The position numbers were made by a program, and so were the translations under genes. The notes under the pieces were generated by a model that did not search any database, was not told where the DNA came from, and saw only the letters and a list, made by a program, of their open reading frames with translations. Below are positions 29,447 through 59,973 of a stretch of DNA of 64,000 nt, in pieces (position 1 is the first letter of the stretch; every line of letters starts with the position of its first letter). Source of the DNA: an uncultured Hormoscilla sp. (lineage in GTDB: Bacteria > Cyanobacteriota > Cyanobacteriia > Cyanobacteriales > Desertifilaceae); assembly GCA_963921275.4 (NCBI GenBank), contig OZ001293.3, positions 4,064,001 through 4,128,000 of the forward strand. The letters run 5' to 3'.

Positions 29447-31567
29447 ATGGCAAGCCCCACCGTGACGACCGGCAAAAACCAACCAGATAAACCCCTCCTG
29501 CGCATCCCGAAACCGCCACTTGCCATCAGACGACTCGGTGCTTGGGTGGTGGAAGTCTCCCTACTCGCAGCTACGGGTGTGGTTCCTTTCAAACTCGGGG
29601 AGTATACTAGGGTTCACTTCACCTCAGAACAAGTCCCCCTTAATCCTGTCCTGGTCTCAACATCCGAGGCAATCGCCCAAACTCTAGCACAGCCGGTCAC
29701 TTCCCGGGAGCGCCAAGTATCCCCCCTCACTAACTTATTTTGGTCTGTAGCTCTGGCCACGCCGATACTCCTGGCTAGCTGGCAACTGTTCTTACTCAGC
29801 ACGACTGGTCAAACATCCCCCAAGCGCTGGTTCGGCGTCCGGGTCATCGCTGCTAGCGGCGAACATCCAGGTATAATTAGAGCATTTGTCCGGGAAGCGA
29901 TCGGACGCTGGGGATTGCCGGTAGGCACGGCCTATGCGATCTGGCGCTACAGTGGAGCCTTTCCTAACCTGGAAATATTAGCAGGGGTGGTCGGAGTATT
30001 CATGCTGGTAGAAGCCCTCAGCGGTCCCTTAAACCGTCACCGACGGGCAATGCATGATCGCCTAGCTGATACTTACGTGGTTTCCGAACAGGTTGTGATC
30101 GCTCCTGATGATGATAGTATGACAGAGGCGATCGTCCTGACACCAGAGTCCATCAGTAGCAGGCGGAGTCTGTGGAACTGGATGCGCCAACACCCGGGGA
30201 TGACTTTACTGATAGTCTCCGTCGCGGGGATGACATCCGTCTTAGGAACCTTCGTCGGGACTCAGATCTATATCCAAAGTCAAGAAAGTCTCCGAGAGTT
30301 TCGCCGCCGAAACGACCAAGTCTATCTGCAACTGGTTGATAAGTTAAATCCAGATTCGCCACAAGCAGCAGCGGAGCGACGGGAAGCAATTATCGCACTC
30401 GGCACCATCGACGACCCCCGAGCCCTGCAATTTTTAGTCGATCTACTGCTGCAAGAACATTCCCTTAAAAACATCGACGCCGTTCAACAAGCTTTATTCA
30501 GTAGCGGACCTGGGGCCCTCCCCTACCTCCAACGCGCTAATCAAGCTCTCTTAAATGATATTGCTGCTATTAAACCCGGTAGCAACAGGCAACAGCAAAA
30601 AATTCTCCAACTCCGACTGCGGGCCACTAAACAGGCGATCGCGAAAATCCTCAATATTTATAGCGATCGCACTCACGATGCCGATCTGAGTCGGGCACAC
30701 CTAGGAAAAACCAGGGATCCGATGCCCTTCACCCTGATCCTGGACCAAACCGATCTATCGGGAATTAACTTCCGAGGAGCGATCCTCTCCAATGCCAGTT
30801 TCAAATATAGTCGCTTCTATGGAGCAGGAGCAGACGAGCACCTAGGAACCTTCGATGATTGGATAGCGGACCTCAGCGGTGCCAACCTGCAAGACTCTAA
30901 CTTGAGCGGCGCGGTGCTACAGAACGTAGACATCATTCGTACCAACCTGATCCGTGCCAAGCTCAACCAAGCTAACCTCAAGGGCGCGCGCTTGAACGGC
31001 GCTAACCTCAGCAGTGCCCAATTAATAGGAGCATCTTTAGAAAAAGCAGTCTTAGAAAATGCCAAACTCACGGGGGCCGATCTAGACGAGACCAACCTAG
31101 AATGGGCGAATTTAAGCGGCGCGAGGATGGTACAAGTGAAAGGGGTAGCTGCTAAGTTCAAATTTGCGGACTTGAGCAAAACGGAGTGGCAAGGAGCAGA
31201 CCTGTCTGGGGCAGACTTGAGTAATACGAAACTGGAAAATGCTGACCTGAACGCGGCGAAGCTGACTGGCGCTAACATGAGCAAGGCGGTGCTAAAGAAT
31301 GTGAGTCTGCGGAATGCGGACATAACACTTGTAGATTTCCGGGGCGCAACCCTGACGGAAGTTGATTTTAAGGGAGCAATTTTTGCTGACCCGAATATTT
31401 CGGTAGAAGAGATTTCTCAGGAGATGGAATTCCTGAAAAAAGCACCTGCTGGTTCGACAGCAGCTCTTTTGAGTGGGGTGGACTTCACCAATGCCAAAAA
31501 TTTAGATGCGAATCAACTCAGCTATATTTGTTCAAAAGGGGCGATTCATCCCCAATGTCCTCTATAA
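29447..31567 (+). CDS. RDD-domain membrane protein with HEAT-like and pentapeptide repeats
   Basis: RRLGAW...GQTSPKRWFGVRV...HDRLADTYVV RDD domain; A(D/N)LxxA pentapeptide tract. Confidence 0.88.
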   Translation: MASPTVTTGKNQPDKPLLRIPKPPLAIRRLGAWVVEVSLLAATGVVPFKLGEYTRVHFTSEQVPLNPVLVSTSEAIAQTLAQPVTSRERQVSPLTNLFWSVALATPILLASWQLFLLSTTGQTSPKRWFGVRVIAASGEHPGIIRAFVREAIGRWGLPVGTAYAIWRYSGAFPNLEILAGVVGVFMLVEALSGPLNRHRRAMHDRLADTYVVSEQVVIAPDDDSMTEAIVLTPESISSRRSLWNWMRQHPGMTLLIVSVAGMTSVLGTFVGTQIYIQSQESLREFRRRNDQVYLQLVDKLNPDSPQAAAERREAIIALGTIDDPRALQFLVDLLLQEHSLKNIDAVQQALFSSGPGALPYLQRANQALLNDIAAIKPGSNRQQQKILQLRLRATKQAIAKILNIYSDRTHDADLSRAHLGKTRDPMPFTLILDQTDLSGINFRGAILSNASFKYSRFYGAGADEHLGTFDDWIADLSGANLQDSNLSGAVLQNVDIIRTNLIRAKLNQANLKGARLNGANLSSAQLIGASLEKAVLENAKLTGADLDETNLEWANLSGARMVQVKGVAAKFKFADLSKTEWQGADLSGADLSNTKLENADLNAAKLTGANMSKAVLKNVSLRNADITLVDFRGATLTEVDFKGAIFADPNISVEEISQEMEFLKKAPAGSTAALLSGVDFTNAKNLDANQLSYICSKGAIHPQCPL

Positions 31568-31606
31568 TTTGAATTAAGAAACCAGGTTTCTGGGTTACGA
31601 TTGCCC

Positions 31607-32596
31607 TTAGCGTGACTCAACCTCCGACAACCAATTCAACAAATCCTCCAGACTGTTGAACTCGAAAATATCCTCGATTAATGCTTCCAAATCTGACAGC
31701 GACAAACTTTCAACTTGACTGTTGATTTCCGCTGTCAATTCTCCAAATCGCTTTTTGAGCAGACGCATTGCCAAAGCGCACGCTTCATCAATAATACCTT
31801 CTTCGCGCCCTTCTGCACGGCCTTCTTCGCGCCCTTCTGCACGGCTTTCTTCCAATGCTTCTTTCCGTGCTTCCTCTCTTGCATACTGTATCCGCCCTAT
31901 CTCATCTTGCCACTGAATGGCGCGACGATTTACTGCCTCTGCTTCTTCCGGTGTCATGTTCGCTAGCTTTGCTATCCTTGAGGCTTTTTCTATTGCTGCA
32001 ATCTCTCCTAAATTCTCTGGGATTTCCTCGAACTCTGACGCCTGCTTGATGAAATAAATCCATTTCTCTGCTAAAGTAGTCAGGTCTTTCAACTCTTTTT
32101 CAAATCTCGGCAATTCGACAAAGATTAGCTGCAATTCGTGTTCGGGATACGCTGAGGAGTCTTCTTCATCTTTGAACTGGAATTTATGAATTACTTTCTG
32201 GCTTTGATGGAACAGAATAAAATCTGTTCCTGTGACGGAAATCACTGGGGATATCTTCAGGTAATAGTCTCCTGATGTTAACTGATTTGCATAGGCTTTG
32301 CACATGTTGTATATTACCCGCTTGTGAAATGCTGATACCCGTGCTATTTGCATTTCAATTAATACCATTTCATCATTCTGTAGTATAGCTCGGACATCCA
32401 AGTAACTTTCCTTTAATGTCTCTACCTCACCCGGGTTGTAAGGATTGACAATGGTTAAGCTGGAAATTACGCTTTCTCCATTGTAGACGATCGCATTCAA
32501 GAAACTTATCAGAATATCTTCACTTTGGTCGGAGCCAAATATTTTTTTGAAGGCAAAATCGACTTTGGGACTAATGAAGGTTTTCTTGGCTATCAC
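31607..32596 (-). CDS. Rpn family PD-(D/E)XK nuclease / putative transposase with DUF4351-like C-terminus
   Basis: FISPKVDFAFKKIFG, LDVRA, LIEMQ, AEGREEGR repeats, RLLKKRFGEL...DLLNWL. Confidence 0.88.
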   Translation of the reverse strand: MIAKKTFISPKVDFAFKKIFGSDQSEDILISFLNAIVYNGESVISSLTIVNPYNPGEVETLKESYLDVRAILQNDEMVLIEMQIARVSAFHKRVIYNMCKAYANQLTSGDYYLKISPVISVTGTDFILFHQSQKVIHKFQFKDEEDSSAYPEHELQLIFVELPRFEKELKDLTTLAEKWIYFIKQASEFEEIPENLGEIAAIEKASRIAKLANMTPEEAEAVNRRAIQWQDEIGRIQYAREEARKEALEESRAEGREEGRAEGREEGIIDEACALAMRLLKKRFGELTAEINSQVESLSLSDLEALIEDIFEFNSLEDLLNWLSEVESR

Positions 32597-32776
32597 TTTT
32601 TTCTCCTTATTTTATCGGTTCGGCGATTCCTGTCAAGCTTGCTCCACGCTCTGACGCTTAACTGACTATACTATATTAACACATGGAAGTAGTGCTATTC
32701 TTTGCCTAGACACCGGTGCTAGCCTGGGGCAAGAGCGTAGGGCTCACTCCCGCCCCAATACTTCTCGGTAATAACC

Positions 32777-32847
32777 TGTCATTGCGAGGGGGGAAGCTCA
32801 AACCGAGATTGTAGGGATCGCCCCAGGATCCCCCCCTCGCAATGACA
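32777..32847. repeat. Palindromic repeat TGTCATTGCGAGGGGGG...CCCCCCTCGCAATGACA
   Basis: Inverted repeat, same core as 61142-61271. Confidence 0.8.
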
Positions 32848-32999
32848 AATAAGTTTTTTTTCGCTATATCAACGATATTGGTCTCTGCCGTTGTGCTTAA
32901 CCGAGAGGTATTGACTCCCGCCCGCGCTAACTGTATGATAGAGAACAATGAACAATGGCTTTCGGTAATTTTTAATTTTGCATTGCTTCAGAGGTAAAG

Positions 33000-33477
33000 A
33001 TGGTACAGACATCCACCAGTCCCAACACCGAAACTAATACGATCGCACTGCCAGGGACAGTAGCACTGAACATCACCCAGGAGCAGTTTGCGGCCCTAGC
33101 AGCAGCAAACCGAGACATGAGACTGGAAAGAACTGCAGAAGGAGAGTTAATAGTGAATCCACCTACAGGCTGGGAAACAGGAGAACGCAACCGCAGCCTT
33201 ACCGGACAACTCGATCGCTGGTACGAAGAGAACGAAAATTTGGGTAAAGCCTTTGACTCATCGACAGGTTTCATTTTACCAAATGGCGCGACTCGCGCCC
33301 CCGATGCTTCTTGGGTTAGTCGAGAACGTTGGGATGCCCTTACTCCCGAACAAAAAGGAACCTTTGCTAATATCTGCCCTGATTTTATTGTTGAGTTACG
33401 GTCTAGTTCCAATCGGCTGGGAACCCTGCAAGCTAAGATGACCGAATACATCAATAATGGCGCCAGACTGGGCTGGC
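33000..33477 (+). pseudogene. Uma2 family endonuclease, C-terminally truncated
   Basis: RLERTAEGELIV, FDSSTGFILPNGA.RAPDASW, PDFIVELRS, GARLGW then breaks off. Confidence 0.85.
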
Positions 33478-33675
33478 AGGGGCGACGGCGGCTTTGCTAG
33501 GGCAGGTTTTTAAGTTGGCAGTCACTCAACCTTGGTTTGGGGCCCAAAATGTGGACGTGACGGCACCGGAATGGTTGCGGGGTGGCTTGCTACTGCCCCT
33601 CGGAAATAATTTTCAACTGTCTTATGTGAGGCTGTTTATAATTGGGCTCACGGTCCTTTGTATTGTCGGCATTTA
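33478..33675 (+). pseudogene. urtB: Internal fragment of urea ABC transporter permease
   Basis: PWFGAQNVDVTAPEWLRGG...RLFIIGLTVLCIVGI resembles cyanobacterial UrtB; fused to Uma2 upstream and cut by the intron downstream. Confidence 0.7.
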
Positions 33676-36073
33676 GTGCGACTCGTTCAGTGTAAACCAC
33701 CGGTGATAACCGAAGGGGGACCACTGGCAAGGCTCCATTAGCCTTGATAACTTTTAGATGATGGTGGTGAAAGCCCACCCCTCCAGGTGCAGGAGTGACA
33801 GCACTTACCCCACGGTAGCGATGGCATCAATCCGTGAAGCGGGTACGAAAGGCGCCCTGGCTGGTAGCCTAAACCGGTCATCGCCGATTTTTCGCGCAGC
33901 GTGCAAGTAGTCACGGTGAGCGAAAGCAAAGATTTACAGTGTCGTTACGACAAACCAGCGTAATAAGGCTAAACACGCTGGCCCAAAAGGGAAAGGATAA
34001 TGGTCATTGGCGGTTCCTTTTCCGACCAATAAGCACCGACAATAAACCCGGCATAAGGAATCCACCTAAAACTACGACCAATCATCTAGAGGAACGAAGT
34101 AAACCAGGTACATACTCTCAACCACCGGTCGATAGGTTGAGCAGCCACCAAAGGCGCAACATCTGCTTACATTCGGCAGGTTATATCTGGGAAAGATTTC
34201 GCGGAGAAGCTAACGCCTTTCTGTAATGGATGGGATATGCTGACGCCCTCACGGTAACGTCAATTGTAAAGTTGTAAGTAGCAATACATACGTCATGAGC
34301 ACGATGTCAAAATCGATGAATGAATGGAAGGATATCCCCTGGCCTCGGCTGGAACGGGTAGTCTTTAAGTTGCAAAAACGAATTTACAGAGCGGCACAAG
34401 AAGGCAATAAGCAAAAAGTTCGCAGGCTCCAAAGGTTACTGGTAAGCTCCCGGGCTGCCAAATGTCTAGCGGTACGACGGGTTACACAAGATAACCAGGG
34501 AAAGAAGACAGCCGGTGTGGATGGTGTGAAATCACTAACCCCAAAGCAACGCCGAGAACTGGTAGGACAGATTGAAATCTCAAACAAGGCTAAGCCTACA
34601 CGTCGTGTATGGATTCCTAAGCCAGGGAGAGAAGAAAAACGTCCTTTAGAAATACCCACGATGCACGACCGCGCGAATCAAGGGCTCCTCAAGATTGCGC
34701 TTGAACCCGAATGGGAAGCATATATGGAGGGGAACTCATACGGATTCAGACCGGGTCGGGGATGCCACGATGCAATTGCGGCAATATTCAGCAGCATTAA
34801 ACAGAAACCCAAATGGGTATTAGATGCAGATATTGCGAAATGTTTCGACAGGATAGACCACAAAGCGCTAGTCGAAAAATTAAATACTACGTCACCAATC
34901 CGTAAACAAGTACGGGCATGGTTAAAAGCCGGGGTGATTGACAAGAAGATATGGCACACAACTGAGGCAGGAACGCCACAAGGGGGTGTCATATCCCCAC
35001 TGCTAGCCAATATAGCCCTACAGGGGTTAGAGGAAGCAGTAATGGAATTAGCAAAGACACAAAGGGAAAAGCAAAAGCTGACGGTAGTCAGATACGCAGA
35101 CGACTTTGTGATCATGCATGAAGACAGGGAGATGATAGACAGAGCGCAAACAGTGGTGGCAGAGTGGCTAAGAAGAATAGGGCTTGAGTTGAAGGCCGAA
35201 AAGACAAAGATAGCCCACAGGCTAAATGGAGAAAACCCGGGATTCGACTTCCTAGGATTCAATATAAGGCAATATAAAGAGGGAAAATACAGAACCGGCA
35301 AATCAACAAACGGAACACCCCTAGGATTCAAAACCCTAATCAAACCCAGTAATAAGTCCATAGGGAAGCATAAAGAACGGTTATCAGAAATGGTAACTAG
35401 CCATATAACAGCACCACAAGCGGCCCTAATAAGCAGGCTAAACCCGATAATAAGGGGATGGTCAAACTACTTTAGGACAGTGGTAAGCAAGGAAATTTAC
35501 AGCGATATGGACAACTACCTATGGAACATCCTATGGCAATGGGCCAAAAGGAGGCACCCTAACAAGTCAAGTAACTGGATAACCTATAAATACTGGTCTG
35601 TAAACCAGGATGCTAAATGGCGATTCCGAAGCAAGACAAAAGAGGGTGATATGAAGATACGTAAACACTCCGAAACTGAGATAATCAGACACGTAAAAGT
35701 GAAAGGGACCGCAAGCCCATACGACGGGAACCTCACATATTGGAGCACAAGATTAGGCAAAAGCCCCGAACTGAGTAAAAGGGTAGCAACGCTACTCAAG
35801 CAGCAAAAGGGAAAATGCCAACAGTGCGGACTAACGTTTATGGATAGTGACAAATGGGAAGTTGACCATATCATGCCCCTTTCACTAGGAGGTAAGGACC
35901 GGTATGACAACCTACAGTTGCTACACAAACACTGCCACGACAAAAAGACTGCCAGCGATGGCAGTAGCCGTACCCATGACAAGGGTGGCGTGACCGAGGA
36001 GCAGGATGAGGCGAAAGTCTCATGTCCGGTTTTGAAGACGAGTCGGTCCGGTGACGGACTGGCTTAGTTTAAT
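33676..36073 (+). mobile_element. Full-length group II intron (2398 bp)
   Basis: 5' GTGCGACTCGTT; domain V GAGCAGGATGAGGCGAAAGTCTCATGTCCGGTTTTG; 3' end ...TTAGTTTAAT. Confidence 0.95.
34295..36067 (+). CDS. ltrA: Group II intron reverse transcriptase/maturase with HNH endonuclease
   Basis: PQGG, YADD, maturase X domain, CQQC...VDH...DNLQLLHKHCH. Confidence 0.96.
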   Translation: MSTMSKSMNEWKDIPWPRLERVVFKLQKRIYRAAQEGNKQKVRRLQRLLVSSRAAKCLAVRRVTQDNQGKKTAGVDGVKSLTPKQRRELVGQIEISNKAKPTRRVWIPKPGREEKRPLEIPTMHDRANQGLLKIALEPEWEAYMEGNSYGFRPGRGCHDAIAAIFSSIKQKPKWVLDADIAKCFDRIDHKALVEKLNTTSPIRKQVRAWLKAGVIDKKIWHTTEAGTPQGGVISPLLANIALQGLEEAVMELAKTQREKQKLTVVRYADDFVIMHEDREMIDRAQTVVAEWLRRIGLELKAEKTKIAHRLNGENPGFDFLGFNIRQYKEGKYRTGKSTNGTPLGFKTLIKPSNKSIGKHKERLSEMVTSHITAPQAALISRLNPIIRGWSNYFRTVVSKEIYSDMDNYLWNILWQWAKRRHPNKSSNWITYKYWSVNQDAKWRFRSKTKEGDMKIRKHSETEIIRHVKVKGTASPYDGNLTYWSTRLGKSPELSKRVATLLKQQKGKCQQCGLTFMDSDKWEVDHIMPLSLGGKDRYDNLQLLHKHCHDKKTASDGSSRTHDKGGVTEEQDEAKVSCPVLKTSRSGDGLA

Positions 36074-36218
36074 TGTCTCTCTAGCCAGGTGCTCAGCTGG
36101 CTGAACCCTTTGTCGTCGTTGTAGAAGTGTTTTGGTGAGAGTTTTGCCGTTCTCAAGCATCAGAGCGACATGAAATGTCTTTTTGCGCTCTGTCGATGCC
36201 TAGAACTGTTTGTGTCAT
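36074..36218 (-). pseudogene. IS110-family recombinase N-terminal fragment
   Basis: Minus strand ATG 36218: MTQTVLGIDRAQK / (frameshift) TFHVALMLENGKTLTKHFYNDDKGFSQLSTWLER; GID start typical of IS110 DEDD domain; cut by the intron. Confidence 0.75.
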
Positions 36219-36275
36219 AGCGCTGTACCTCAATTTTAACTCAATTTTAAGTGGATAGCATACAAATTGTATGCT

Positions 36276-36472
36276 GACTGGTCAATGCAACTAACCGCGG
36301 TTTAGCAGGCTCAACAAAGCGTGGGTGGCCTAAGATACTGGACAGTATCAGGATCAAACCAGTCGTGATTCACCTGCAGGGAGCTAATCTACACAACAGA
36401 CTTAGCCTTAAGGTGTATTAGGGGCACGCCAGCTTCACCTGACCGAAGTAGAGAGAGTGTTTGAGTGCTCTG
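36276..36472 (-). ncRNA. IS110/IS621-type bridge-RNA-like locus
   Basis: Upstream of the IS110 fragment; two stem-enclosed loops (CAGG..AGCT/AGCT..CCTG and GACTGGT/ACCAGTC) carrying CGTGCCCCT...TGTTGTGTAGATT and CCAGTATCT, paralleling the IS621 bridge RNA layout as recalled. Confidence 0.7.
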
Positions 36473-36671
36473 GTCGGGGTCGAGCTGGGAATCACTCCCC
36501 AACCCTCCAAGAGCGGAACCGGGCTTGCGACTTTCACCGCACCCGGCTACTGGGCAGTAGGGCCTTGTCATTGGTAGGATTACTGGGGATTACTCCCGTT
36601 GTCCCTCATCTCATGTAATTTCTCCCCTTTCCTGGTTGGTAAGTGGCGCTGCCGGATAACCTTTAGTATTA

Positions 36672-37683
36672 ACTCAAGTTGCGACCTATAAAAATTGGAT
36701 ACAAAAAGCTATGATAAAGAGAATTATTTTCAACTCTAATCCCTTAGATGTAACAGCATGAATTGACTTGGGAAACAAATTTGTGATTCGACTAAAACAG
36801 GTTTCAACTTGTTTTCTTGTTACTTTTTGTATATATTCAAAACAAGAATATTCTTTTTTTTTTGAGTTCTTTTTTCGCAAAGGTTTTAACATTATACTTG
36901 ACGACTCTTTTAGTAAATCCTCTAATTGATAATCATTATAAGCTTTATCTCCATAAACTATTGAATTTGATGGTAAGTCAAAGCCAAAAGATTGCAAAAC
37001 TTTAAAATCATTATAACTACCAGGATCTAGATAAAATTCTATTGGCTTTCCATTTTTGTTTACCAACATATGAACTCTTAATCCATAAAAATAACGTTTT
37101 TTACTGGCAATATACCCTCGATATTCTTCCTTGTTATAAATTTGGCATCTATCAATCCTAATATTATCACATACTGGCACCGGGAAACTATCAAGAATAT
37201 ATTCTTGACCCGGATTGAGATATTTAAATGTTTGAGCTATAACTTGGAAGAAAAACATCCAAATTGGTTCGTCAATATTGTGTAATCGACGATTGAACCT
37301 ACTTTTACTTAACAGATTTTTTATATACTTGTGTTGGACCATAAATTGACAAGAGCGATCGTGGTGTCCTCCGAAAAAATATGCAGCAACTAATCCGACT
37401 GTCATCACTTCGGCATTGTTCATTTTTACTTGTGGATCTTCTTTTATATTTAACGCTTTTAGTAGCTCGTCACAAAGAACAAAAATTGTTGTAATCATAT
37501 CTTCCATCATCTACATCCCCCAGCAATTAACTATTATTTTAGTACATTATAACCTATAAACAGCCAACCCGCCGTCTAGCACAAAAAAAATATAATTTTG
37601 TATCAAAAGCTACGAAATATCCCAAATATCTGTAAAGTCTAAGTGGGTAATTCATATTTTTTTTAATAGGTCGCAACTTAGGT
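36672..37683 (-). mobile_element. IS982-family insertion sequence, copy A (1012 bp)
   Basis: TIR AC(TC/CT)AAGTTGCGACCTAT; TSD TATTA. Confidence 0.93.
36686..37510 (-). CDS. IS982 family transposase (DDE intact)
   Basis: ILDSFP, FYGLRVH, GDKAY, RKQVETCFS. Confidence 0.93.
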   Translation of the reverse strand: MMEDMITTIFVLCDELLKALNIKEDPQVKMNNAEVMTVGLVAAYFFGGHHDRSCQFMVQHKYIKNLLSKSRFNRRLHNIDEPIWMFFFQVIAQTFKYLNPGQEYILDSFPVPVCDNIRIDRCQIYNKEEYRGYIASKKRYFYGLRVHMLVNKNGKPIEFYLDPGSYNDFKVLQSFGFDLPSNSIVYGDKAYNDYQLEDLLKESSSIMLKPLRKKNSKKKEYSCFEYIQKVTRKQVETCFSRITNLFPKSIHAVTSKGLELKIILFIIAFCIQFL

Positions 37684-37946
37684 TATTACCAATTTATCTG
37701 AGTCCGTTTCACCAGTTATCCCACCTTCGCATGCTAGGTATTGGGGCGTATTAGGGTTACTTTAGCCCGAGATTTCCTACTGTCACCGACCCCTGTTTGC
37801 TTATCCCAGGCATTAATTAGGGCTTTTGCTTCTTGGGCCATCCCTCCCACCGTAGCTTGCGCTTCACATCTGACTGGTCTCGGTAGACAGCACACGATGG
37901 GTTACTTCGTTCCCTAGTATCATTTCACGATGCTTTTAGGTTCCTA

Positions 37947-38864
37947 CTATACCCCGGGTCTCTCCGTAAAGGAAGAGGGCAGATAGGGGGTCTGCACGCC
38001 CATTTTCTTCGCAGCTAACGCCTCCTCAGCGATGCGATCGCACTTGCGGAGGAACCCGGACCACAAATCTTGTCCCATAACGGGGTTTCTGAGATCGTGA
38101 CTGGCTTTAGAGACTGCTGCTTCTAGGGGTTCTCCTTTGCTAACGTAATATTGAATGCGTTCTTCTTCAAAGGCGGGATAAGGAACACCAGGTTCTATCT
38201 CCCAGTCCCGCTTAACTTTCTGACTTTCACCTAAAGCTATTCCGGCGACAAATTCATCCCAAAAGGGAGACAATAACCCTTTAGTCATGCCATCGATCAC
38301 CTTAAAAACCCATCCCGAAGGGTTAGGATACCCTTGGATCTTAGCATACTCTAATAAAGTCCGTTGAAATTCCTCTAATTCAGCAGGAGACTTCCAGGGA
38401 CCGCTAAATTGATAATTCGGAGTGACTTGCACGGCAATAGCTTGACGTCGCACCGGGAAATATTTATCTTCTTTAATTGTTCTGGGAGTTTTATCTTGAA
38501 CCTGAATTAGAGATGCTTGAGATTCCTCTGGTGTAATCAAATTATCCTCTAATCTTTTTTCTAGGGCCTCCAGGTCCGGCCAAAACTCCAGGGCCCCACT
38601 TTTCCCGCTAACTATTCTCTCTTTCAAGAGCGATCGGGCCTTAAGTTGGCGGCGTGCCAGATCTTGTTCCGAGGAATTCAAACCGGTTTCCGCCTCCATT
38701 TGCTCGACAGTAATGGATATCCATTCTTGAGAATTACCCGAGGAATGACTCTGACACAGTTGACAGAAAAACACGGCAGCAGTTACCCCACCAGTAACTT
38801 TAGCCACCTGAGGATAATATACCATTGGTTGACCTATCTGTCGCCAAAATACTCCTAATTTCAC
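37947..38864 (-). CDS. Hypothetical protein (N-terminal HTH/replication-initiator-like region), probably C-terminally truncated
   Basis: 305-aa ORF; stop codon supplied by intron-remnant sequence. Confidence 0.6.
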   Translation of the reverse strand: MKLGVFWRQIGQPMVYYPQVAKVTGGVTAAVFFCQLCQSHSSGNSQEWISITVEQMEAETGLNSSEQDLARRQLKARSLLKERIVSGKSGALEFWPDLEALEKRLEDNLITPEESQASLIQVQDKTPRTIKEDKYFPVRRQAIAVQVTPNYQFSGPWKSPAELEEFQRTLLEYAKIQGYPNPSGWVFKVIDGMTKGLLSPFWDEFVAGIALGESQKVKRDWEIEPGVPYPAFEEERIQYYVSKGEPLEAAVSKASHDLRNPVMGQDLWSGFLRKCDRIAEEALAAKKMGVQTPYLPSSFTERPGV

Positions 38865-38923
38865 TTTTTTATCCTTATCATTCGTTCGTAGTAAGGACTT
38901 TAGTCCTTACCTCCGTCATGCAA

Positions 38924-39322
38924 TTATGAGAAACAAATTGCTTCTACTTTCACCTCAACCAGCATCGCCGGATCTACTAAAGCGCTAACTTCAACCATTG
39001 TACTGGTTGGGGGATGTTCTGCAAAGAATTCGCGATGGGCCTGAATAAACTCTTGGGCGCGACTAATATCAGTCACAAACAAGCGTACTCGGATAACATC
39101 GCTACAGTCAGCCCCCAAATCCTGCAAAGATTTTTGGATAATTGACAAGCAATATTTAGTTTGGGCGTAAGCATCTCCGGGGGCGAATACGCCTCCAGAT
39201 TGATCGATAGGTGCGGTCCCGGAAACATAAATCTGGTTTCCCACTCTGAGGGCGCGACAGTAACCCGCTTTTTCCTCCCAACTCGTTCCCGAAAATGTCC
39301 TAGTAATTTGTTTATTCGCCAT
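38924..39322 (-). CDS. RidA/YjgF/UK114 family protein
   Basis: SGTSWEEKAGYCRA..VGNQIYVSGT, PTSTMVEVSALVDP..LVEV. Confidence 0.9.
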   Translation of the reverse strand: MANKQITRTFSGTSWEEKAGYCRALRVGNQIYVSGTAPIDQSGGVFAPGDAYAQTKYCLSIIQKSLQDLGADCSDVIRVRLFVTDISRAQEFIQAHREFFAEHPPTSTMVEVSALVDPAMLVEVKVEAICFS

Positions 39323-39324
39323 TC

Positions 39325-40077
39325 TCAATTTTCCATTTTCCATTCGCCATTCTCAATTCGCAACATTTGGTTGCCGCCGCGCTGAAATTCATAATCCACC
39401 TGCCGGGTTTCTACATGATAACCCTGCTGTCTTAATTCCATTATAGTACCTGACAGGTGTGGAGAAGGTTCTCCCGATAGATCCAGCAGGGGGAAGATGC
39501 GGACTGCCCTAGCGACTCGACATAGTTCTAGTATAGCATGGAAATGGAATGCTGCATCAAGTTGGTCGGAATAAAGAAATAATAGATGAGAACAGAGGGC
39601 TAAATCAAATTTTTTTTTATTGAAAGGTAGTACTGGCAATTCAGCTTTCACATAACGCCCTGACTTTTTCCCCTCGGTAAAATCAGCCAAAAACTGCTGC
39701 ATGGCTGCCATTCTCACCTGTCCTAGCTGAGTGGGAGAGGTGATTTCTCTTTGCCAAACATATTGATCTTGATTTGCCTTTACTCCCTCGACAATAACTG
39801 GATAAGTTGCTTGAATGCGTCGGGCAATTTCATCAGCGCTGAATTGATAAACTGGATCGCAGGAAATCACATTATTGTAGCCCTTTCGATGCCCTCGGGG
39901 CACGCTACTCGCACTACCCCTCGCACATCGCCGCGTCATTTCCGCATTAAAGCTAGCAGGACCGCCACCAGAATCAAGGATCTTTAAATCTAACTCTGGT
40001 ATAGTAATGTCGAACATTCTCAGGTATTCAGAGTGCGATCGGCCCCAGGGTACTACGTTATCTAGCTTTAATCCCAT
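39325..40077 (-). CDS. SAM-dependent methyltransferase with in-frame repeat insertion
   Basis: VVPWGRS, ILDSGGGPASF, FDLALCSHLLFLYS, YEFQRGGN; extra CARGSASSVPRGHR encoded by the palindrome at 39887-39930. Confidence 0.85.
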   Translation of the reverse strand: MGLKLDNVVPWGRSHSEYLRMFDITIPELDLKILDSGGGPASFNAEMTRRCARGSASSVPRGHRKGYNNVISCDPVYQFSADEIARRIQATYPVIVEGVKANQDQYVWQREITSPTQLGQVRMAAMQQFLADFTEGKKSGRYVKAELPVLPFNKKKFDLALCSHLLFLYSDQLDAAFHFHAILELCRVARAVRIFPLLDLSGEPSPHLSGTIMELRQQGYHVETRQVDYEFQRGGNQMLRIENGEWKMEN

Positions 40078-40721
40078 TGTTTGGCCTCCGTAAACTGGTT
40101 ATTTTGTATCCCCGGCGACGGTTTTAGTAAATTATATACAGGACTGAGGCAAATTGTCAAACCGAGTCCTAGATTTAGCTTCTGGTGGGCGGTACTGAGT
40201 TATGATATCATCAGGGAGCGCGATCGTTTGCTTTGAGAACGGCGATCCATGGCCTCCCATCCGCCGGTGCGATCGCCGGACATGAGAATCGTTGGAGAGA
40301 TTTGGAATTGTCAAATTGAGGACATTCCCACGAAGCTCAATTAATGGTAAAACCATCTTCACTGATGCAGGGCATCTGCGATGACAATTGTAGACTATAA
40401 TTGATAGATAAGATGGACTATTCCCAAATTCGCGCCGAAGCAGAAAGACTGCTGGAGATACTTTATGTAACACCGTTTGAAGACTGCTGCCCCTTGACCA
40501 AACAATTTTCCCATCTGATGGTTAGACCGGGTTTGTATGCTATCCGTCATCGGGTTGATGGTATATTAACTCAAGTTGCTACCTATAAAAATTGCGACCT
40601 CCCAGACAGCCATTTTGGTAAATTTATTCGCCAAAATGCCGTTTTGGGGTAAATCACAAGGTAATTTTGGCTGATTTTGGCTGATTTTGGCGCTTTGCAA
40701 GGAGTTGAGGTTCTATAGGTA

Positions 40722-41733
40722 ACCTAAGTTGCGACCTATTAAAAAAAATATGAATTACCCACTTAGACTTTACAGATATTTGGGATATTTCGTAGCTTTT
40801 GATACAAAATTATATTTTTTTTGTGCTAGACGGCGGGTTGGCTGTTTATAGGTTATAATGTACTAAAATAATAGTTAATTGCTGGGGGATGTAGATGATG
40901 GAAGATATGATTACAACAATTTTTGTTCTTTGTGACGAGCTACTAAAAGCGTTAAATATAAAAGAAGATCCACAAGTAAAAATGAACAATGCCGAAGTGA
41001 TGACAGTCGGATTAGTTGCTGCATATTTTTTCGGAGGACACCACGATCGCTCTTGTCAATTTATGGTCCAACACAAGTATATAAAAAATCTGTTAAGTAA
41101 AAGTAGGTTCAATCGTCGATTACACAATATTGAGGAACCAATTTGGATGTTTTTCTTCCAAGTTATAGCTCAAACATTTAAAGAGCTCAATCCGGGTCAA
41201 GAATATATTCTTGATAGTTTCCCGGTGCCAGTATGTGATAATATTAGGATTGATAGATGCCAAATTTATAACAAGAAAGAATATCGAGGGTATATTGCCA
41301 GTAAAAAACGTTATTTTTATGGATTAAGAGTTCATATGTTGGTAAACAAAAATGGAAAGCCAATAGAATTTTATCTAGATACTGGTAGTTATAATGATGT
41401 TAAAGTTTTGCAATCTTTTGGCTTTGACTTACCATCAAATTCAATAGTTTATGGAAATAAAGCTTATAATGATTATCAATTAGAGGATTTACTAAAAGAG
41501 TCGTCAAGTATAATGTTAAAACTTTTGCGAAAAAAGAACTCAAAAAGAAAAGAATATTCTTGCTTTGAATATATACAAAAAGTAACAATAAAACAAGTTA
41601 AAACCTGTTTTAGTCGAATCACCAATTTGTTTCCCAAGTCAATTCATGCTGTTACATCTAAGGGATTAGAGTTGAAAATAATTCTCTTTATCATAGCTTT
41701 TTGTATCCAATTTTTATAGGTCGCAACTTGAGT
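40722..41733 (+). mobile_element. IS982-family insertion sequence, copy B (1012 bp)
   Basis: Inverted near-copy of 36672-37683; TSD TAGGTA (40716-40721, 41734-41739). Confidence 0.93.
40895..41719 (+). CDS. IS982 family transposase, probably inactive
   Basis: GDKAY changed to GNKAY and RKQVET to IKQVKT relative to copy A. Confidence 0.88.
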   Translation: MMEDMITTIFVLCDELLKALNIKEDPQVKMNNAEVMTVGLVAAYFFGGHHDRSCQFMVQHKYIKNLLSKSRFNRRLHNIEEPIWMFFFQVIAQTFKELNPGQEYILDSFPVPVCDNIRIDRCQIYNKKEYRGYIASKKRYFYGLRVHMLVNKNGKPIEFYLDTGSYNDVKVLQSFGFDLPSNSIVYGNKAYNDYQLEDLLKESSSIMLKLLRKKNSKRKEYSCFEYIQKVTIKQVKTCFSRITNLFPKSIHAVTSKGLELKIILFIIAFCIQFL

Positions 41734-41768
41734 TAGGTAGCAACTTAGGTTATATTATATATTGGTAA

Positions 41769-42535
41769 GTGCGATTCGTTTAGCATAAACCGCCAGTGAT
41801 AACTGGTGGGGGACCGCTAGCAGGGTTTCATTAGCCCTAACAACTTACAGATGATGGTGGTGAAAGCCCACCCCTCCAGGTGCAGGAGTGAAAGCATATT
41901 CCTTACAGTAGCGATGGCATCAATCTGTAAAGCAGGAATAAAAGGCGCACTGGCCGGTAGCCTAAACCGGTCAACGTCAAGCAAGTAGCCATGATGAGCA
42001 TAAAGCAAAGATTTGCAGCGTCGTAAATATGAACCAGTGTAATAAGGCTGAGACACTGGCCCAAAAGGGAAAGGATAATGGTCGTTGGCAGGTTTATCTC
42101 TGACCAACAAGCACTGACAATAAACCCGGCGTATGGAATCCATCTAAAGCTACAACCAATCATCTGTAGGAACGAAGTAACCCGGTTACGCACTCTCTAT
42201 CACCGGTCGATAGGTAGAGTAGTCACCAAAGACGTAACATCTGCTCTCATTAGGCAGGTCGTAGCCGGAAAAGGATTGAGTGGAGAAGCAAACGCCTATT
42301 TGTAATGAGTAGGATACGCTGACGCTCTCACGGTAATGTCAAAGGTAAAGTTGCAAGTAACAGTACAAACGTTATGAACAAGGTTTCAAAACCGATGTAT
42401 GAATGGAAGACCATCCCCTGGCGAAAGTTAGAACGGAGGGTTTTCAAGCTGCAAAAGCGAATTTACAGAGCGGCACAACGTGGCAATACACTGCCACGAC
42501 GTAAAGACTGCTAACGATGGTAGTTGCCGTACCTA
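41769..42535 (+). mobile_element. Group II intron with internally deleted ORF, 3' end cut off
   Basis: GTGCGATTCGTT start; ORF from 42374 MNKVSKPMYEWKTIPW...RAAQRGN jumps directly to the HNH-tail-like HCHDVKTANDGSCRT. Confidence 0.88.
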
Positions 42536-44933
42536 ATTAAACTAAGCCAGTCCGTCACCGGACCGACTCGTCTTCAAAACCGGACATGAGACTTTCGCCT
42601 CATCCTGCTCCTCGGTCACGCCACCCTTGTCATGGGTACGGCTACTGCCATCGCTGGCAGTCTTTTTGTCGTGGCAGTGTTTGTGTAGCAACTGTAGGTT
42701 GTCATACCGGTCCTTACCTCCTAGTGAAAGGGGCATGATATGGTCAACTTCCCATTTGTCACTATCCATAAACGTTAGTCCGCACTGTTGGCATTTTCCC
42801 TTTTGCTGCTTGAGTAGCGTTGCTACCCTTTTACTCAGTTCGGGGCTTTTGCCTAATCTTGTGCTCCAATATGTGAGGTTCCCGTCGTATGGGCTTGCGG
42901 TCCCTTTCACTTTTACGTGTCTGATTATCTCAGTTTCGGAGTGTTTACGTATCTTCATATCACCCTCTTTTGTCTTGCTTCGGAATCGCCATTTAGCATC
43001 CTGGTTTACAGACCAGTATTTATAGGTTATCCAGTTACTTGACTTGTTAGGGTGCCTCCTTTTGGCCCATTGCCATAGGATGTTCCATAGGTAGTTGTCC
43101 ATATCGCTGTAAATTTCCTTGCTTACCACTGTCCTAAAGTAGTTTGACCATCCCCTTATTATCGGGTTTAGCCTGCTTATTAGGGCCGCTTGTGGTGCTG
43201 TTATATGGCTAGTTACCATTTCTGATAACCGTTCTTTATGCTTCCCTATGGACTTATTACTGGGTTTGATTAGGGTTTTGAATCCTAGGGGTGTTCCGTT
43301 TGTTGATTTGCCGGTTCTGTATTTTCCCTCTTTATATTGCCTTATATTGAATCCTAGGAAGTCGAATCCCGGGTTTTCTCCATTTAGCCTGTGGGCTATC
43401 TTTGTCTTTTCGGCCTTCAACTCAAGCCCTATTCTTCTTAGCCACTCTGCCACCACTGTTTGCGCTCTGTCTATCATCTCCCTGTCTTCATGCATGATCA
43501 CAAAGTCGTCTGCGTATCTGACTACCGTCAGCTTTTGCTTTTCCCTTTGTGTCTTTGCTAATTCCATTACTGCTTCCTCTAACCCCTGTAGGGCTATATT
43601 GGCTAGCAGTGGGGATATGACACCCCCTTGTGGCGTTCCTGCCTCAGTTGTGTGCCATATCTTCTTGTCAATCACCCCGGCTTTTAACCATGCCCGTACT
43701 TGTTTACGGATTGGTGACGTAGTATTTAATTTTTCGACTAGCGCTTTGTGGTCTATCCTGTCGAAACATTTCGCAATATCTGCATCTAATACCCATTTGG
43801 GTTTCTGTTTAATGCTGCTGAATATTGCCGCAATTGCATCGTGGCATCCCCGACCCGGTCTGAATCCGTATGAGTTCCCCTCCATATATGCTTCCCATTC
43901 GGGTTCAAGCGCAATCTTGAGGAGCCCTTGATTCGCGCGGTCGTGCATCGTGGGTATTTCTAAAGGACGTTTTTCTTCTCTCCCTGGCTTAGGAATCCAT
44001 ACACGACGTGTAGGCTTAGCCTTGTTTGAGATTTCAATCTGTCCTACCAGTTCTCGGCGTTGCTTTGGGGTTAGTGATTTCACACCATCCACACCGGCTG
44101 TCTTCTTTCCCTGGTTATCTTGTGTAACCCGTCGTACCGCTAGACATTTGGCAGCCCGGGAGCTTACCAGTAACCTTTGGAGCCTGCGAACTTTTTGCTT
44201 ATTGCCTTCTTGTGCCGCTCTGTAAATTCGTTTTTGCAACTTAAAGACTACCCGTTCCAGCCGAGGCCAGGGGATATCCTTCCATTCATTCATCGATTTT
44301 GACATCGTGCTCATGACGTATGTATTGCTACTTACAACTTTACAATTGACGTTACCGTGAGGGCGTCAGCATATCCCATCCATTACAGAAAGGCGTTAGC
44401 TTCTCCGCGAAATCTTTCCCAGATATAACCTGCCGAATGTAAGCAGATGTTGCGCCTTTGGTGGCTGCTCAACCTATCGACCGGTGGTTGAGAGTATGTA
44501 CCTGGTTTACTTCGTTCCTCTAGATGATTGGTCGTAGTTTTAGGTGGATTCCTTATGCCGGGTTTATTGTCGGTGCTTATTGGTCGGAAAAGGAACCGCC
44601 AATGACCATTATCCTTTCCCTTTTGGGCCAGCGTGTTTAGCCTTATTACGCTGGTTTGTCGTAACGACACTGTAAATCTTTGCTTTCGCTCACCGTGACT
44701 ACTTGCACGCTGCGCGAAAAATCGGCGATGACCGGTTTAGGCTACCAGCCAGGGCGCCTTTCGTACCCGCTTCACGGATTGATGCCATCGCTACCGTGGG
44801 GTAAGTGCTGTCACTCCTGCACCTGGAGGGGTGGGCTTTCACCACCATCATCTAAAAGTTATCAAGGCTAATGGAGCCTTGCCAGTGGTCCCCCTTCGGT
44901 TATCACCGGTGGTTTACACTGAACGAGTCGCAC
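42536..44933 (-). mobile_element. Full-length group II intron (2398 bp), inverted copy of 33676-36073
   Basis: Same termini, same length and identical ORF translation. Confidence 0.95.
42542..44314 (-). CDS. ltrA: Group II intron reverse transcriptase/maturase with HNH endonuclease
   Basis: 590 aa identical to 34295-36067. Confidence 0.96.
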   Translation of the reverse strand: MSTMSKSMNEWKDIPWPRLERVVFKLQKRIYRAAQEGNKQKVRRLQRLLVSSRAAKCLAVRRVTQDNQGKKTAGVDGVKSLTPKQRRELVGQIEISNKAKPTRRVWIPKPGREEKRPLEIPTMHDRANQGLLKIALEPEWEAYMEGNSYGFRPGRGCHDAIAAIFSSIKQKPKWVLDADIAKCFDRIDHKALVEKLNTTSPIRKQVRAWLKAGVIDKKIWHTTEAGTPQGGVISPLLANIALQGLEEAVMELAKTQREKQKLTVVRYADDFVIMHEDREMIDRAQTVVAEWLRRIGLELKAEKTKIAHRLNGENPGFDFLGFNIRQYKEGKYRTGKSTNGTPLGFKTLIKPSNKSIGKHKERLSEMVTSHITAPQAALISRLNPIIRGWSNYFRTVVSKEIYSDMDNYLWNILWQWAKRRHPNKSSNWITYKYWSVNQDAKWRFRSKTKEGDMKIRKHSETEIIRHVKVKGTASPYDGNLTYWSTRLGKSPELSKRVATLLKQQKGKCQQCGLTFMDSDKWEVDHIMPLSLGGKDRYDNLQLLHKHCHDKKTASDGSSRTHDKGGVTEEQDEAKVSCPVLKTSRSGDGLA

Positions 44934-45752
44934 TGAACTAACGGACATAACAACTCAATCAATTTTCACGAGTGGAGAATCTTCTTGCCACTATCAAGTC
45001 CAAGCAACAAGGGCGTCATAGTGCAACATAAAAAAATCAGGCAGGACCCTTTGTTTTAGCAACTAATCAACTTGATAAATTAGCGCTAAATTCAGAAAAA
45101 ATGCTCCACATATATAAAACCGAGCAGCAGGAAGTGAAGCGTTGTTTTAAGTTTGTTAAAGACCCAATGTTTTTTGCGGATAGTGTATTTATTAAATCTC
45201 CAAAATGAATTGAAGTTTTAGGTTTAATTATGGCTCGATCTTTGTTAGTGTATAAAGTAGTAGAGCGACAGATAAGGCAAACACTTAAAGGAACAGGTTC
45301 AGGAGTAAAAAATCAGTTAGGTCCGCTGACGGATAGACCGACCCTACCTTGGATATTTCAATGTTTTCAGTCAATCCATATCTATATATCAGGCGGTAAC
45401 AAACAGATTTCAAATATTAATGAGGAGCGTTTGCACTTTCTGAAATTCTTCCCCCAGCATGGAGCGCGGTACTATTTACTGGCGTAAAATTCAAGAGGGT
45501 AAATTATGTAAAAACACACATTCAATAATGAGTATAACTTAGAGATATTTCACCTCTGAGTAGCTTGATATTGAGCAATAATAGAAAAATTTTAGTAATT
45601 TTATGTCAAGTAAGTTGTTGTTGTTGGTTGGTATAATTTTTTGGGTATTTTAAGGGACGCTGCATTGGATATTTGCCTATATTTGTGATATTGTAAGAGT
45701 TAAAAAGACCGATGTTTTATTTATGTAGTACACTTGTCGTGCGTAATGTAGG
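44934..45752 (+). mobile_element. IS1634-family transposase 3' remnant and right end
   Basis: FVLATNQLD, FKFVKDPMFFADSVFIKSP, LLVY..ERQIR, TDRPTL.WIFQCFQSIH with stops; end-like GTGCGTAATGTAGG at 45739-45752. Confidence 0.8.
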
Positions 45753-59503: not shown

Positions 59504-59628
59504 TATGGAATATGAAGAATCTGCGAGTTTTACTAATCGGCGGTTATGCAGCAATGCTGGCGTATTGCACCCATCTATTATCTCAAAATTTGACTGGCAA
59601 TTCCCAGGTGGCTAAAGCAGAAGCGACT

Positions 59629-59722
59629 CCAGTCATGATTCGGTTCAGGGAGCTAATCTACACAACAGACTTGTCAAAGTGTGTTTGAGTCCTCTTCCAC
59701 CAGACTAATCCTAGCATACAAG
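59629..59722 (-). mobile_element. Orphan IS110 left-end remnant
   Basis: Minus strand CT-TGTATGCTAGG... then GAG.ACTCAAACAC and AAGTCTGTTGTGTAGATTAGCTCCCTG shared with 36359-36470. Confidence 0.75.
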
Positions 59723-59973
59723 GGGCACGGCAGAGCGTAGATTATCGGTGATGATGTAAAAGGTAACAGCTGCCGTGTCCCGGGGCGATCGCAAATGTGA
59801 TTTCGGGACAGGGCATCATTATCGGCTATGATGAGGAAGGAGACAAACAGGCTGCTTTGTGCCCCGGCGCAAGGCGATAGCCAATAGGTGGTCGCAGCAG
59901 GCAGATGAGAGATTGAGGTGCAAGATGAGAGGAAAGGAGACAGGAGGTGATGTATAATGCCAGGAAGTGAAGT

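Follow-up and report, generated by a model that had tools for sequence, protein, structure and literature searches.

A probable relic of an IS621-like insertion sequence with readable bridge RNA guides in a cyanobacterial genome

Can the guides of a bridge RNA still be read in a broken copy of an insertion sequence, and do they tell where the element inserts? The question is raised by a short stretch of the 64-kb window analysed here (the window being the whole piece of DNA at its full length). In this stretch the original prediction had placed, on the minus strand, the N-terminus of an IS110 recombinase, preceded by a region with two stem-enclosed loops whose guides were aimed at the target CGTGCCC-CT-ACACA, and it had taken the copy to be probably dead. 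Our analysis leads us to regard the locus as very probably what remains of an IS110 insertion sequence of the IS621-like kind that is now dead. The features discussed below are collected in Table 1, where the locus is called copy 1 and a second remnant in the window copy 2.

Table 1. Positions of the parts of the two remnants and of the mobile elements that adjoin copy 1.
Feature	Coordinates	Strand	Basis or remark
Group II intron A; its RT-maturase-HNH open reading frame spans 34295-36067	33676..36074	plus	domains V-VI at 35997-36073
IS110-family recombinase pseudogene, codons 1-47	36075..36218	minus	tblastn with P0002, P0004, P0006, P0011 and P0014
Left-end non-coding region, with the putative bridge RNA gene inside	36219..36472	minus	alignment with L001 and copy 2; model R1
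Promoter-like site TTGACC-17-TATGCT	36257..36285	minus	by consensus match alone; 1 site, 0.6 expected
3' strand CCAGTC of the donor-loop closing stem	36276..36281	minus	compensatory pairs
Position of the right donor guide, TAAACCGCG	36296..36304	minus	decayed; family ATTNACAAG; columns 231, 233, 235
Inner hairpin of the donor-binding loop (TAGGC ... GCCTG)	36306..36332	minus	alignment, pair counts, model R1
Left donor guide CCAGTATCT	36333..36341	minus	family version ACAGTATCT; first base C here, A in the family
5' strand GACTGG of the donor-loop closing stem	36359..36364	minus	pairs with 36276-36281; compensatory relative to family GACAGG/CCTGTC
AT, placed like the target-loop handshake guide of IS621	36387..36388	minus	position by alignment; complementary to left-donor positions 6-7 (AT)
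Right target guide TGTGTAG	36389..36395	minus	GTAG pairs with CT+AC; 5' TGT is an extension unused in the clade
Inner hairpin of the target-binding loop	36397..36419	minus	one broken pair (family G to T), longer loop (column 104)
Left target guide CGTGCCCCT, 7 nt plus CT core	36420..36428	minus	shares columns with flank-matching guides; equals the copy 2 flank
GGTGAAGCTGG block, conserved and immediately 5' to the left target guide	36429..36439	minus	invariant or near-invariant columns, 31 sequences
Second group II intron, 3' part, domains V-VI at 36551->36473	36473..36669	minus	RF00029 in Rfam, 41.9 bits (gathering score 40)
1016-bp insertion sequence with DDE transposase (PF13612, PF01609)	36670..37685	minus	cuts the upstream part of the second intron
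Copy 2, left-end remnant of the same subfamily	59589..59720	minus	R1 20.4 bits, E 4e-4 (59712->59589); alignment
CGTGCCCCT, left target plus CT core at the copy 2 insertion site	59721..59729	minus	string match

A recombinase fragment between two group II introns

Copy 1 runs from 36472 to 36075 on the minus strand and is the left part of an IS110-family element. Its recombinase fragment starts with an ATG at 36218 and the peptide MTQTVLGID, in which LGID, with the first Asp of the DEDD motif, is kept. Comparison of the window with two 323-aa IS110 proteins (P0002 and P0004) by tblastn yielded a sole match, at 36218-36076 with E values of 6e-6 to 1.4e-5, which bears out the predicted N-terminus and makes the peptide of 36074-36218 homologous to proteins with the domains PF01548 and PF02371. 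With five family proteins the match covers residues 1-47 and is spread over three frames, and we therefore place two frameshifts in the fragment, near 36191 and near 36127, both overlooked in the prediction. The likeness to IS110 ends at codon 47 (36075), where the end of group II intron A adjoins at 36074. The five proteins gave no further significant tblastn match to the rest of the gene in the 64-kb window, and codons 48-323 are absent from copy 1. PF01548 is accordingly not whole, being represented by the frameshifted codons 1-47 and the first Asp only, while PF02371, the C-terminal Tnp domain with the catalytic Ser, is missing from copy 1 and present in full relatives. Pfam searches with single-frame peptides of the fragment gave no IS110 match because these peptides are too short.

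The proteins used for these comparisons go back to a one-frame word-based search that led to P0001, a 97-aa fragment with PF01548. When the first 58 residues of P0001 served as query, 27 of 28 candidates were found at E <= 0.01, and most of the 27 are 323 aa long and contain both PF01548 and PF02371, which in P0004 extend over residues 6-152 and 194-279, respectively. Among solved structures, residues 6-316 of P0004 match the IS621 transposase (PDB 8wt6) with an E value of 8.6e-74, in agreement with the assignment of the locus to an element of IS110/IS621 type with its RNA gene upstream of the recombinase.

The surroundings are rich in other mobile elements. Intron A cuts the recombinase gene with its 3' end in antisense, and an identical inverted copy of it lies at 42535-44937. 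The second group II intron, which differs from intron A, adjoins the truncated left end of copy 1, and the 3' ends of the two introns face each other. We looked next to both copies of intron A for a continuation of the recombinase gene, but the 5' exon of neither copy carries it on, and for this reason the present flanks probably arose by later recombination between the intron copies. The 1016-bp insertion sequence next to the second intron has a 99% identical inverted copy at 40720-41735. Further group II intron pieces are located at 2158-3935 and 41769-42533, and on a larger scale the surroundings are chromosomal and include genes encoding Mfd, BioB, BioY, LspA and pentapeptide-repeat proteins.

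The damage is not restricted to the gene. By alignment with copy 2 and with the closest relative, locus L001, the left end of copy 1 begins at about element position 26, and an intron end has therefore replaced the first ~25 nt. Copy 1 has neither element end, and the defined CT-flanked ends that relatives have on both sides are absent. A search of the 64-kb window revealed no right end and no empty target site of the element; in particular, no empty CGTGCCCCTAC site occurs in the window, and matches with at most two mismatches number 13, compared with 12.07 expected. Copy 1 is dead, as had been surmised, because its recombinase is reduced to 47 frameshifted codons and both ends are gone: it lacks codons 48-323, the right end and, at the left end, approximately the first 25 nt, and two intron 3' ends flank what is left. 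The loss at the left end, the two bracketing introns and the second remnant at 59.7 kb had escaped the original prediction.

The upstream region, its relatives and its structure

To place the upstream region among related sequences, we relied on an alignment of nine full-length proteins, which was run against genome contigs and gave 595 pattern matches and 340 confirmed relatives, the best 80 of which were kept. The closest of the best 80 of 340 is L001 from Microcoleus asticus IPMA8, with a protein 97% identical to P0004. About 35 further loci among these 80 share 59-69% protein identity and come from Microcoleus, Tychonema, Chamaesiphon, Kamptonema and other cyanobacteria; the remainder of the best 80 of 340, at 47-58% identity, belong to Acidobacteriota, Chloroflexota, Desulfobacterota and Gammaproteobacteria.

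The non-coding stretch from 36472 to 36219 covers 254 nt upstream of the recombinase ATG and is homologous to the upstream regions of the relatives, its RNA region to those of L001 and more than 30 cyanobacterial loci. The window piece and L001 are 73.6% identical over 345 nt by blastn (E 2e-50), with a mean column identity of 79% over the whole alignment. A covariance model of the region, R1, was built from 30 relatives with the window left out. It matches the window at 36445->36273 with 63.8 bits and E 4e-16, a result that is unchanged with the filters off and supports the predicted bridge RNA locus. The model scores 108-210 bits on its training members, by construction, and 20-66 bits on distant relatives outside the training set, always just upstream of the recombinase gene; a plasmid copy in Leptolyngbya boryana reaches 51.6 bits. 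The resemblance of copy 1 to its relatives is thus far beyond chance by both blastn (E 2e-50) and R1 (E 4e-16). No match to the locus was found by blastn among the PLSDB plasmids. Rfam had no match at E <= 10 in the RNA region (searched as 30000-42000 and 36200-36480), and may lack a bridge RNA family; in gathering mode its only matches in the whole window were group II intron domains and three CRISPR-DR28 matches.

When the window is aligned with the upstream regions of 30 cyanobacterial loci (31 sequences), a layout common to the family emerges. Its first part consists of GGTGAAGYTGG, a variable 9-mer ending in CT, a hairpin, and YTGYGTAG-AT-TAGCTCCC; the second part reads GACAGGC ... TGG-ACAGTATCT-TAGGC-hairpin-GCCTG-C-ATTNACAAG-GTTAGT ... 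GCCTGTC. The three strings singled out in the original prediction, CGTGCCCCT at 36428-36420, TGTGTAG at 36395-36389 and CCAGTATCT at 36341-36333, were all found on the minus strand, and in this alignment they share columns with the left target, right target and left donor guides of the family, as proposed.

A structure computed with RNAalifold from the 31 sequences contained the second domain's stems, which show compensatory changes, but was dropped for pairing the guide bases of the target loop with one another. Because of this mis-pairing of the first loop, we used the conserved stems to set up a structure of our own with 26 pairs. In it 95.8% of the cells are paired, a figure inflated by the fact that the structure was drawn from the consensus, and 8 pairs are changed on both sides; none of 500 shuffles reached any of five measures, and controls with the structure slid along the alignment had 21-33% of cells paired. 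Since the structure is drawn from the consensus and the sequences are related, it is the compensatory changes that carry the weight, the clearest being GACAGG/CCTGTC in the family versus GACTGG/CCAGTC in the window and L001. The two stem-enclosed loops of the prediction thus hold at the level of the family, by covariation, and both stems of the donor loop hold in copy 1 itself; the target loop's outer stem cannot be made out in copy 1, and the inner stem has one pair broken by a G-to-T change. Minimum free energies gave no signal relative to shuffled sequences, either for the window RNA (z of -0.35 and -0.29) or for relatives with both ends (-0.30 for L004 and +0.08 for L001), and comparison of folding energy with shuffles does not discriminate for this class of RNA.

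Besides the donor-loop stems, copy 1 retains three guides, namely those for the left target, the right target (with the adjoining AT) and the left donor, as well as the GGTGAAGCTGG block. The AT may serve as a handshake guide, a role taken over from IS621 as described in excerpts of PMC11208158. The CT core is read by three of the four guides (..CT, ..AG, ..CT). The fourth, the right donor guide, had been suspected of decay, and at 6 of its 9 positions it indeed departs from L001, with a CG at its end in place of the AG that a CT core requires. Its sequence, TAAACCGCG, is unable to pair with CT followed by TGTAT, the left end seen in copy 2, whereas the family version ATTNACAAG is able to do so.

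Guides and the sites beside the elements

The proposed guides can be compared with the sequences that flank each element. In L001 the 9-mer of the first loop is CGTGTCCCT, and the left junction reads ...TTGC-CGTGTCCCT followed directly by TGTATGTTAAG, a 9/9 match of the flank to the element's own guide; at the right junction, ...ACAGTATCT is followed by ACAGG.

This comparison was extended to the R1 matches among the best 80 of 340 relatives, 59 of which offer 150 nt or more of sequence on the upstream side and a guide free of gaps. In 36 of these 59 loci the left target guide was found upstream without a mismatch, followed by TGTAT in 31 of the 36, compared with 14 matches in 1475 locus-by-guide combinations when foreign guides were used. 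The 59 loci were not de-duplicated, 29 of them share the guide CCCGCCCCT and some are copies of one element, so that with many near-identical relatives the counts are not independent. Counted as distinct guides, 12 of 26 match their own flank (best 80 of 340), for example CCCACCCCT, ACCCAACCT, GCCCGAATT, GTGTCACCT and ATCCGCCCT. The 23 loci of the same set that have no exact upstream match include 10 with a 1-mismatch and 4 with a 2-mismatch 9-mer directly before T[GA]TAT.

On the right side, 62 of the 80 R1 matches (again the best 80 of 340) extend far enough downstream, and in 40 of the 62 the end of the element repeats the left donor guide exactly. In these 40 elements of the best 80 of 340, the complement of the right target guide agrees with the flank at the two core bases in 40/40 and 39/40 cases and at positions 1 and 2 in 39/40 and 37/40; at positions 3, 4 and 5 it agrees in 19, 17 and 20 of 40. 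The corresponding proportions for foreign guides at positions 1-5 are 0.65, 0.48, 0.27, 0.33 and 0.26. Eight of the 40 elements, all of them distant and with differing guides, match at 7/7 positions (best 80 of 340). The cyanobacterial clade reads only CT+AC on the right side, like the 4-nt guide of IS621.

Two further observations concern the donor side. Five relatives among the best 80 of 340 have the left donor guide GCGGTATCT, a 2-mismatch variant, despite the right end ACAGTATCT, and ATTNACAAG pairs with CT+TGTAT if two bases are allowed to bulge. When the right and left ends are joined, TTGAC[AT]-17/18-TAT[CG]TT appears in 18 of 22 elements.

The window itself contains an independent junction. 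Copy 2 starts with TGTATGCTAGG, and the minus strand there reads ...ctctgc-CGTGCCCCT followed directly by TGTATGCTAGGATTAGTCTGGTGGAAGAG..., so that the first bases of the remnant, TGTATG, stand immediately after a 9-mer identical at 9/9 positions to the left target guide of copy 1. The chance of such a match at a given junction is 4^-9. Copy 2 is 90% identical to L001 over 40 nt, 12 nt of flank included, and 89% identical to copy 1 over the shared pieces (both by blastn), and it has the same right target guide, TGTGTAG. A deletion of ~52 nt has removed its own left target guide, and its donor loop is shortened; the recombinase gene and the right end are missing, and the left junction is the only one present. 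As the flank of copy 2 equals the guide of copy 1, the guide of one remnant predicts the insertion site of the other.

The copy 2 junction confirms the target prediction CGTGCCC-CT inside the window. Of the full string CGTGCCC-CT-ACACA in the original prediction, the left part and core stand with 9/9 positions in copy 2 and the following AC is supported by the right-side counts of relatives; the further ACA falls away, with 19, 17 and 20 of 40 at positions 3-5. For the putative left donor CCAGTAT the window offers no right end, and relatives end in ACAGTATCT. The predicted start of the left end, TGTAT, is seen in copy 2 and in relatives. Bridge RNA guides are therefore readable from raw sequence even in a broken copy, and can be checked within the same 64 kb.

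The target site is of a particular type, namely the arm of a palindrome: L059 has GTAGGGACACGGCA-g-TGCCGTGTCCCTAC and then a T run, and L030 is similar. The majority guide CCCGCCCCT matches an abundant AACCCGCCCCTAC repeat, with 30 occurrences in 13 loci. The target palindromes of the subfamily would be of the type GTAGGGGCACGGCA-N-TGCCGTGCCCCTAC.

Readings of the remnant and comparison with known systems

We propose that relatives with both ends encode, upstream of their recombinase, a bridge RNA that has two internal loops. In the first loop, a 9-nt left target guide equals the left target plus the CT core, and a right target guide is complementary to CT plus the two bases after it. In the second loop, the left donor guide equals the last 9 nt of the element, ACAGTATCT, and the 9-nt right donor guide ATTNACAAG pairs, with a 2-nt bulge, with CT plus the first element bases TGTAT. 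Excision as a circle would join the two ends and produce TTGAC[AT]-17/18 nt-TAT[CG]TT, a likely promoter for the RNA. By analogy with IS621, the family RNA would be transcribed and bound by its protein, and its chemistry would be the same.

The target loop retained in copy 1 would specify CGTGCCC-CT-AC, a type of site that forms one arm in a palindromic, terminator-like repeat, and at such a site an element of the same subfamily did insert in this genome, as copy 2 shows. Full copies of the subfamily would end in (A/C)CAGTATCT at the right end. Copy 1 itself is unable to act, having a frameshifted recombinase cut at codon 47 and no right end; a group II intron end has replaced about the first 25 nt of its left end, the -10 box included, and its right donor guide has ceased to fit the CT core.

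It is conceivable that the remnant is still useful, in that it is transcribed (for example by intron read-through) and its target loop acts in trans as a half-guide or decoy with the recombinase of full copies. We consider this very unlikely. Consistent with such a use, both target guides and the AT are unchanged relative to the family columns, and the bridge RNA functions in trans in E. coli according to excerpts of PMC11208160. In addition, at the 108 columns conserved to at least 90% among the other 29 cyanobacterial sequences, the window deviates alone at only 9, compared with 5 for L001; three of the nine lie in the right donor guide. However, no promoter-like site was found upstream of the RNA, the only such site nearby (Table 1) being 3' of the RNA and 5' of the open reading frame, and both the first hairpin's 5' arm and the -10 part of the junction promoter are gone. 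The target loop lacks its outer stem, and in the predicted fold the 5' region is paired with the mutated donor-guide region; furthermore, the right donor guide misfits the CT core and the window holds no full recombinase gene. A more specific scenario, to which we assign a very low probability, is that an intron-remnant transcript with the orphaned target loop combines with the recombinase of other copies into a target-only half-guide, which occupies or nicks CGTGCCC-CT-AC arms or brings about half-matched rearrangements such as those mentioned in excerpts of bioRxiv 10.64898/2026.08.31.748434. If true, such relics would influence which sites remain open to insertion by the family.

The change in the right donor guide, now TAAACCGCG, could also be viewed as a natural reprogramming to another donor end rather than as decay. 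Its 6 of 9 differences from L001 contrast with the mean column identity of 79% overall, and L002, L013, L014 and L027 are also changed at the same stretch; but the other three guides keep the CT core where TAAACCGCG would need CG, and the only visible left end of the subfamily, that of copy 2, starts with TGTAT like the rest of the family, which makes reprogramming highly improbable. Finally, the notion that the upstream region is a mere mRNA leader or a transposase-binding end with coincidental guide-like strings, with which the uninformative folding energies and the absence of an Rfam match would agree, has next to no probability and is already contradicted, as among the best 80 of 340 relatives the guides co-vary with the flanks (12 distinct left target guides, against 14 of 1475 in the control) and right target guides fit at 7/7 positions in 8 distant elements of different sequence, and the stems show compensatory change.

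The reading of copy 1 as a dead relic of an IS621-like element also has a bearing on its relatives. The clade keeps the donor junction ACAGTAT-CT-TGTAT, and its left target guide varies and leads to different palindromic repeats. Judged by titles, the literature on bridge RNA, IS110 and cyanobacteria yielded no description of an IS621-like cyanobacterial clade, and the supplements of Durrant et al. may list such elements; the clade is now documented in filamentous cyanobacteria (Microcoleus, Tychonema, Chamaesiphon, Kamptonema and Leptolyngbya). Full relatives, for instance of the P0004 type, are candidates for new programmable recombinases.

Comparisons with IS621 of E. coli are based on excerpts of PMC11208160 and PMC11208158. 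The published bridge RNA comprises a 5' stem-loop and then a pair of stem-loops with internal loops (PMC11208160, in excerpts). In IS621 as in the family described here, the RNA gene is in the left end, upstream of the recombinase, and the first of two internal loops is variable and the second conserved, a likeness of layout. The left guides are 9 nt long including the CT core, the working right target guide has 4 nt, and 7 donor bases are paired, discontiguously, with the 9 nt of the right donor guide (PMC11208160). Both have their target in a palindromic repeat, and in both the junction of right and left ends yields a promoter-like motif; the promoter of IS621 is rebuilt upon excision (PMC11208160, in excerpts). 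The donor string of IS621 given in the original prediction has no occurrence in the main text of PMC11208160 or PMC11208158. There are also differences from the IS621 described in these excerpts. The host here is a cyanobacterium, the target is CGTGCCC-CT-AC as opposed to the ATCAGGCCTAC and ATCGGGCCTAC given for IS621, copy 1 is a pseudogene that has been truncated and whose right donor guide is decayed, and many cyanobacterial relatives have 124-489 nt, partly tandem repeats, between the left terminus and the RNA.

A Shewanella relative used as a DNA query had no match in E. coli genomes. L081, an IS110 element on an E. coli plasmid, was considered as a stand-in for IS621 and rejected, being no closer to IS621 than the cyanobacterial family is and scoring only 12.9 bits with R1 in its upstream region.

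Other IS110-related systems share individual aspects with the family. ISPpu9 and ISPpu10 of Pseudomonas putida are IS110 elements that insert into repetitive extragenic palindromes, according to excerpts of PMC12288879 and bioRxiv 10.64898/2026.03.19.712850, and the target here is likewise the arm of a palindrome. The repeat family and the host differ from those of ISPpu9/ISPpu10 as described there. In the IS1111 group the non-coding region is situated downstream of the transposase, whereas the RNA here is upstream of the recombinase. Excerpts of the seekRNA study of that group (Siddiquee et al. 2024, PMC11187229) describe subterminal inverted repeats and, in common with the present family, a transposase of the DEDD superfamily and an RNA-guided choice of target. 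The best match of P0004 among solved structures is the ISCro4 transposase (PDB 9t56; E 8.4e-78, residues 6-316), a comparison at the level of the protein only. Surrounded by a nest of other mobile elements, copy 1 is a relic of an ordinary sort, and the system from which it derives is of a known kind, the IS621 type.

Altered recombinases and donor guides among the relatives

Some of the alterations seen in the IS110 remnant at 36075-36472 of the window (the window copy) have counterparts among its relatives, of which the best 80 of 340 confirmed loci carry L-numbers. The recombinase of the nearest relative, L001 from Microcoleus asticus IPMA8, contains a +1 frameshift near codons 11-12 (L001 positions 2171-2210), at about the site of the first frameshift in the window copy. 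Because the protein of P0004, a 323-aa recombinase of the same family, is intact, this frameshift is a mutation and not the normal reading of the gene. Annotated at 174 aa, the Microcoleus sp. POL10_C6 protein P0011 matches the recombinase over residues 1-49 and diverges beyond. This is close to the break after codon 47 in the window copy, and P0011 may represent another insertion at almost the same point.

The donor guides also vary among these loci. In L002, L013, L014 and L027, the end of the right donor guide that pairs with the core reads TCTYG in place of AAGG, and the window copy is changed at this position too; the recombinase frame and both element ends appear whole in all four. The left donor guide is GCGGTATCT in L015, L017, L019, L027 and L030, where the right end is still ACAGTATCT, a 7/9 match to that guide. 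Either such a disparity between guide and end is tolerated, or these copies form a disabled lineage.

Spacing of left terminus and bridge RNA

The left terminus lies 24-65 nt from the bridge RNA in L001 and in many non-cyanobacterial relatives. In L002-L028 and other cyanobacterial loci the distance is 124 to 489 nt, and tandem repeats of the GGCGATCGTACCGACAAG type occupy part of the interval. If a promoter at the junction drives the RNA, elements with the 124-489-nt spacing would have a much longer 5' leader.

Further introns and repeats in the window

Additional repeats and group II intron sequences in the window are listed in the table. Directly after the mfd-like gene, the sequence looks like a 181-nt tandem repeat, since the matches to the Rfam CRISPR-DR28 model and CCCCTTGCATC both recur at 181 nt; a CRISPR array at the matches was rejected, as this spacing is too wide. 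The array of ~60-nt units directly adjoins the second IS110 remnant.

Repeats and further group II introns in the window
Feature	Position	Details
Third group II intron	2158-3935	69-75% identity to intron A
1016-bp insertion sequence, solo terminal repeat	41736-41752	
Group II intron derivative, no open reading frame	41769-42533	79% identity to intron A over the 5' 734 nt
~100-nt repeats	47508-47983	spaced 300 nt, within a 1154-aa cadherin-domain open reading frame
CCCCTTGCATC at 181-nt intervals	55405-55777	
CRISPR-DR28 matches	55523-55908	3 matches, 36.6 bits (gathering score 35)
~60-nt unit (ggtttgtagtaagcgctttagcccttgcgttgggtttcgtccagaaac...)	59300-59560	at least 3 head-to-tail copies

The reverse transcriptase of the third intron is split over two frames. 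In the derivative, which follows just behind the solo terminal repeat, the 5' part is fused to a piece matching positions 2254-2299 of intron A, the group II intron at 33676-36074, and the second copy of intron A is inserted antisense into this derivative.
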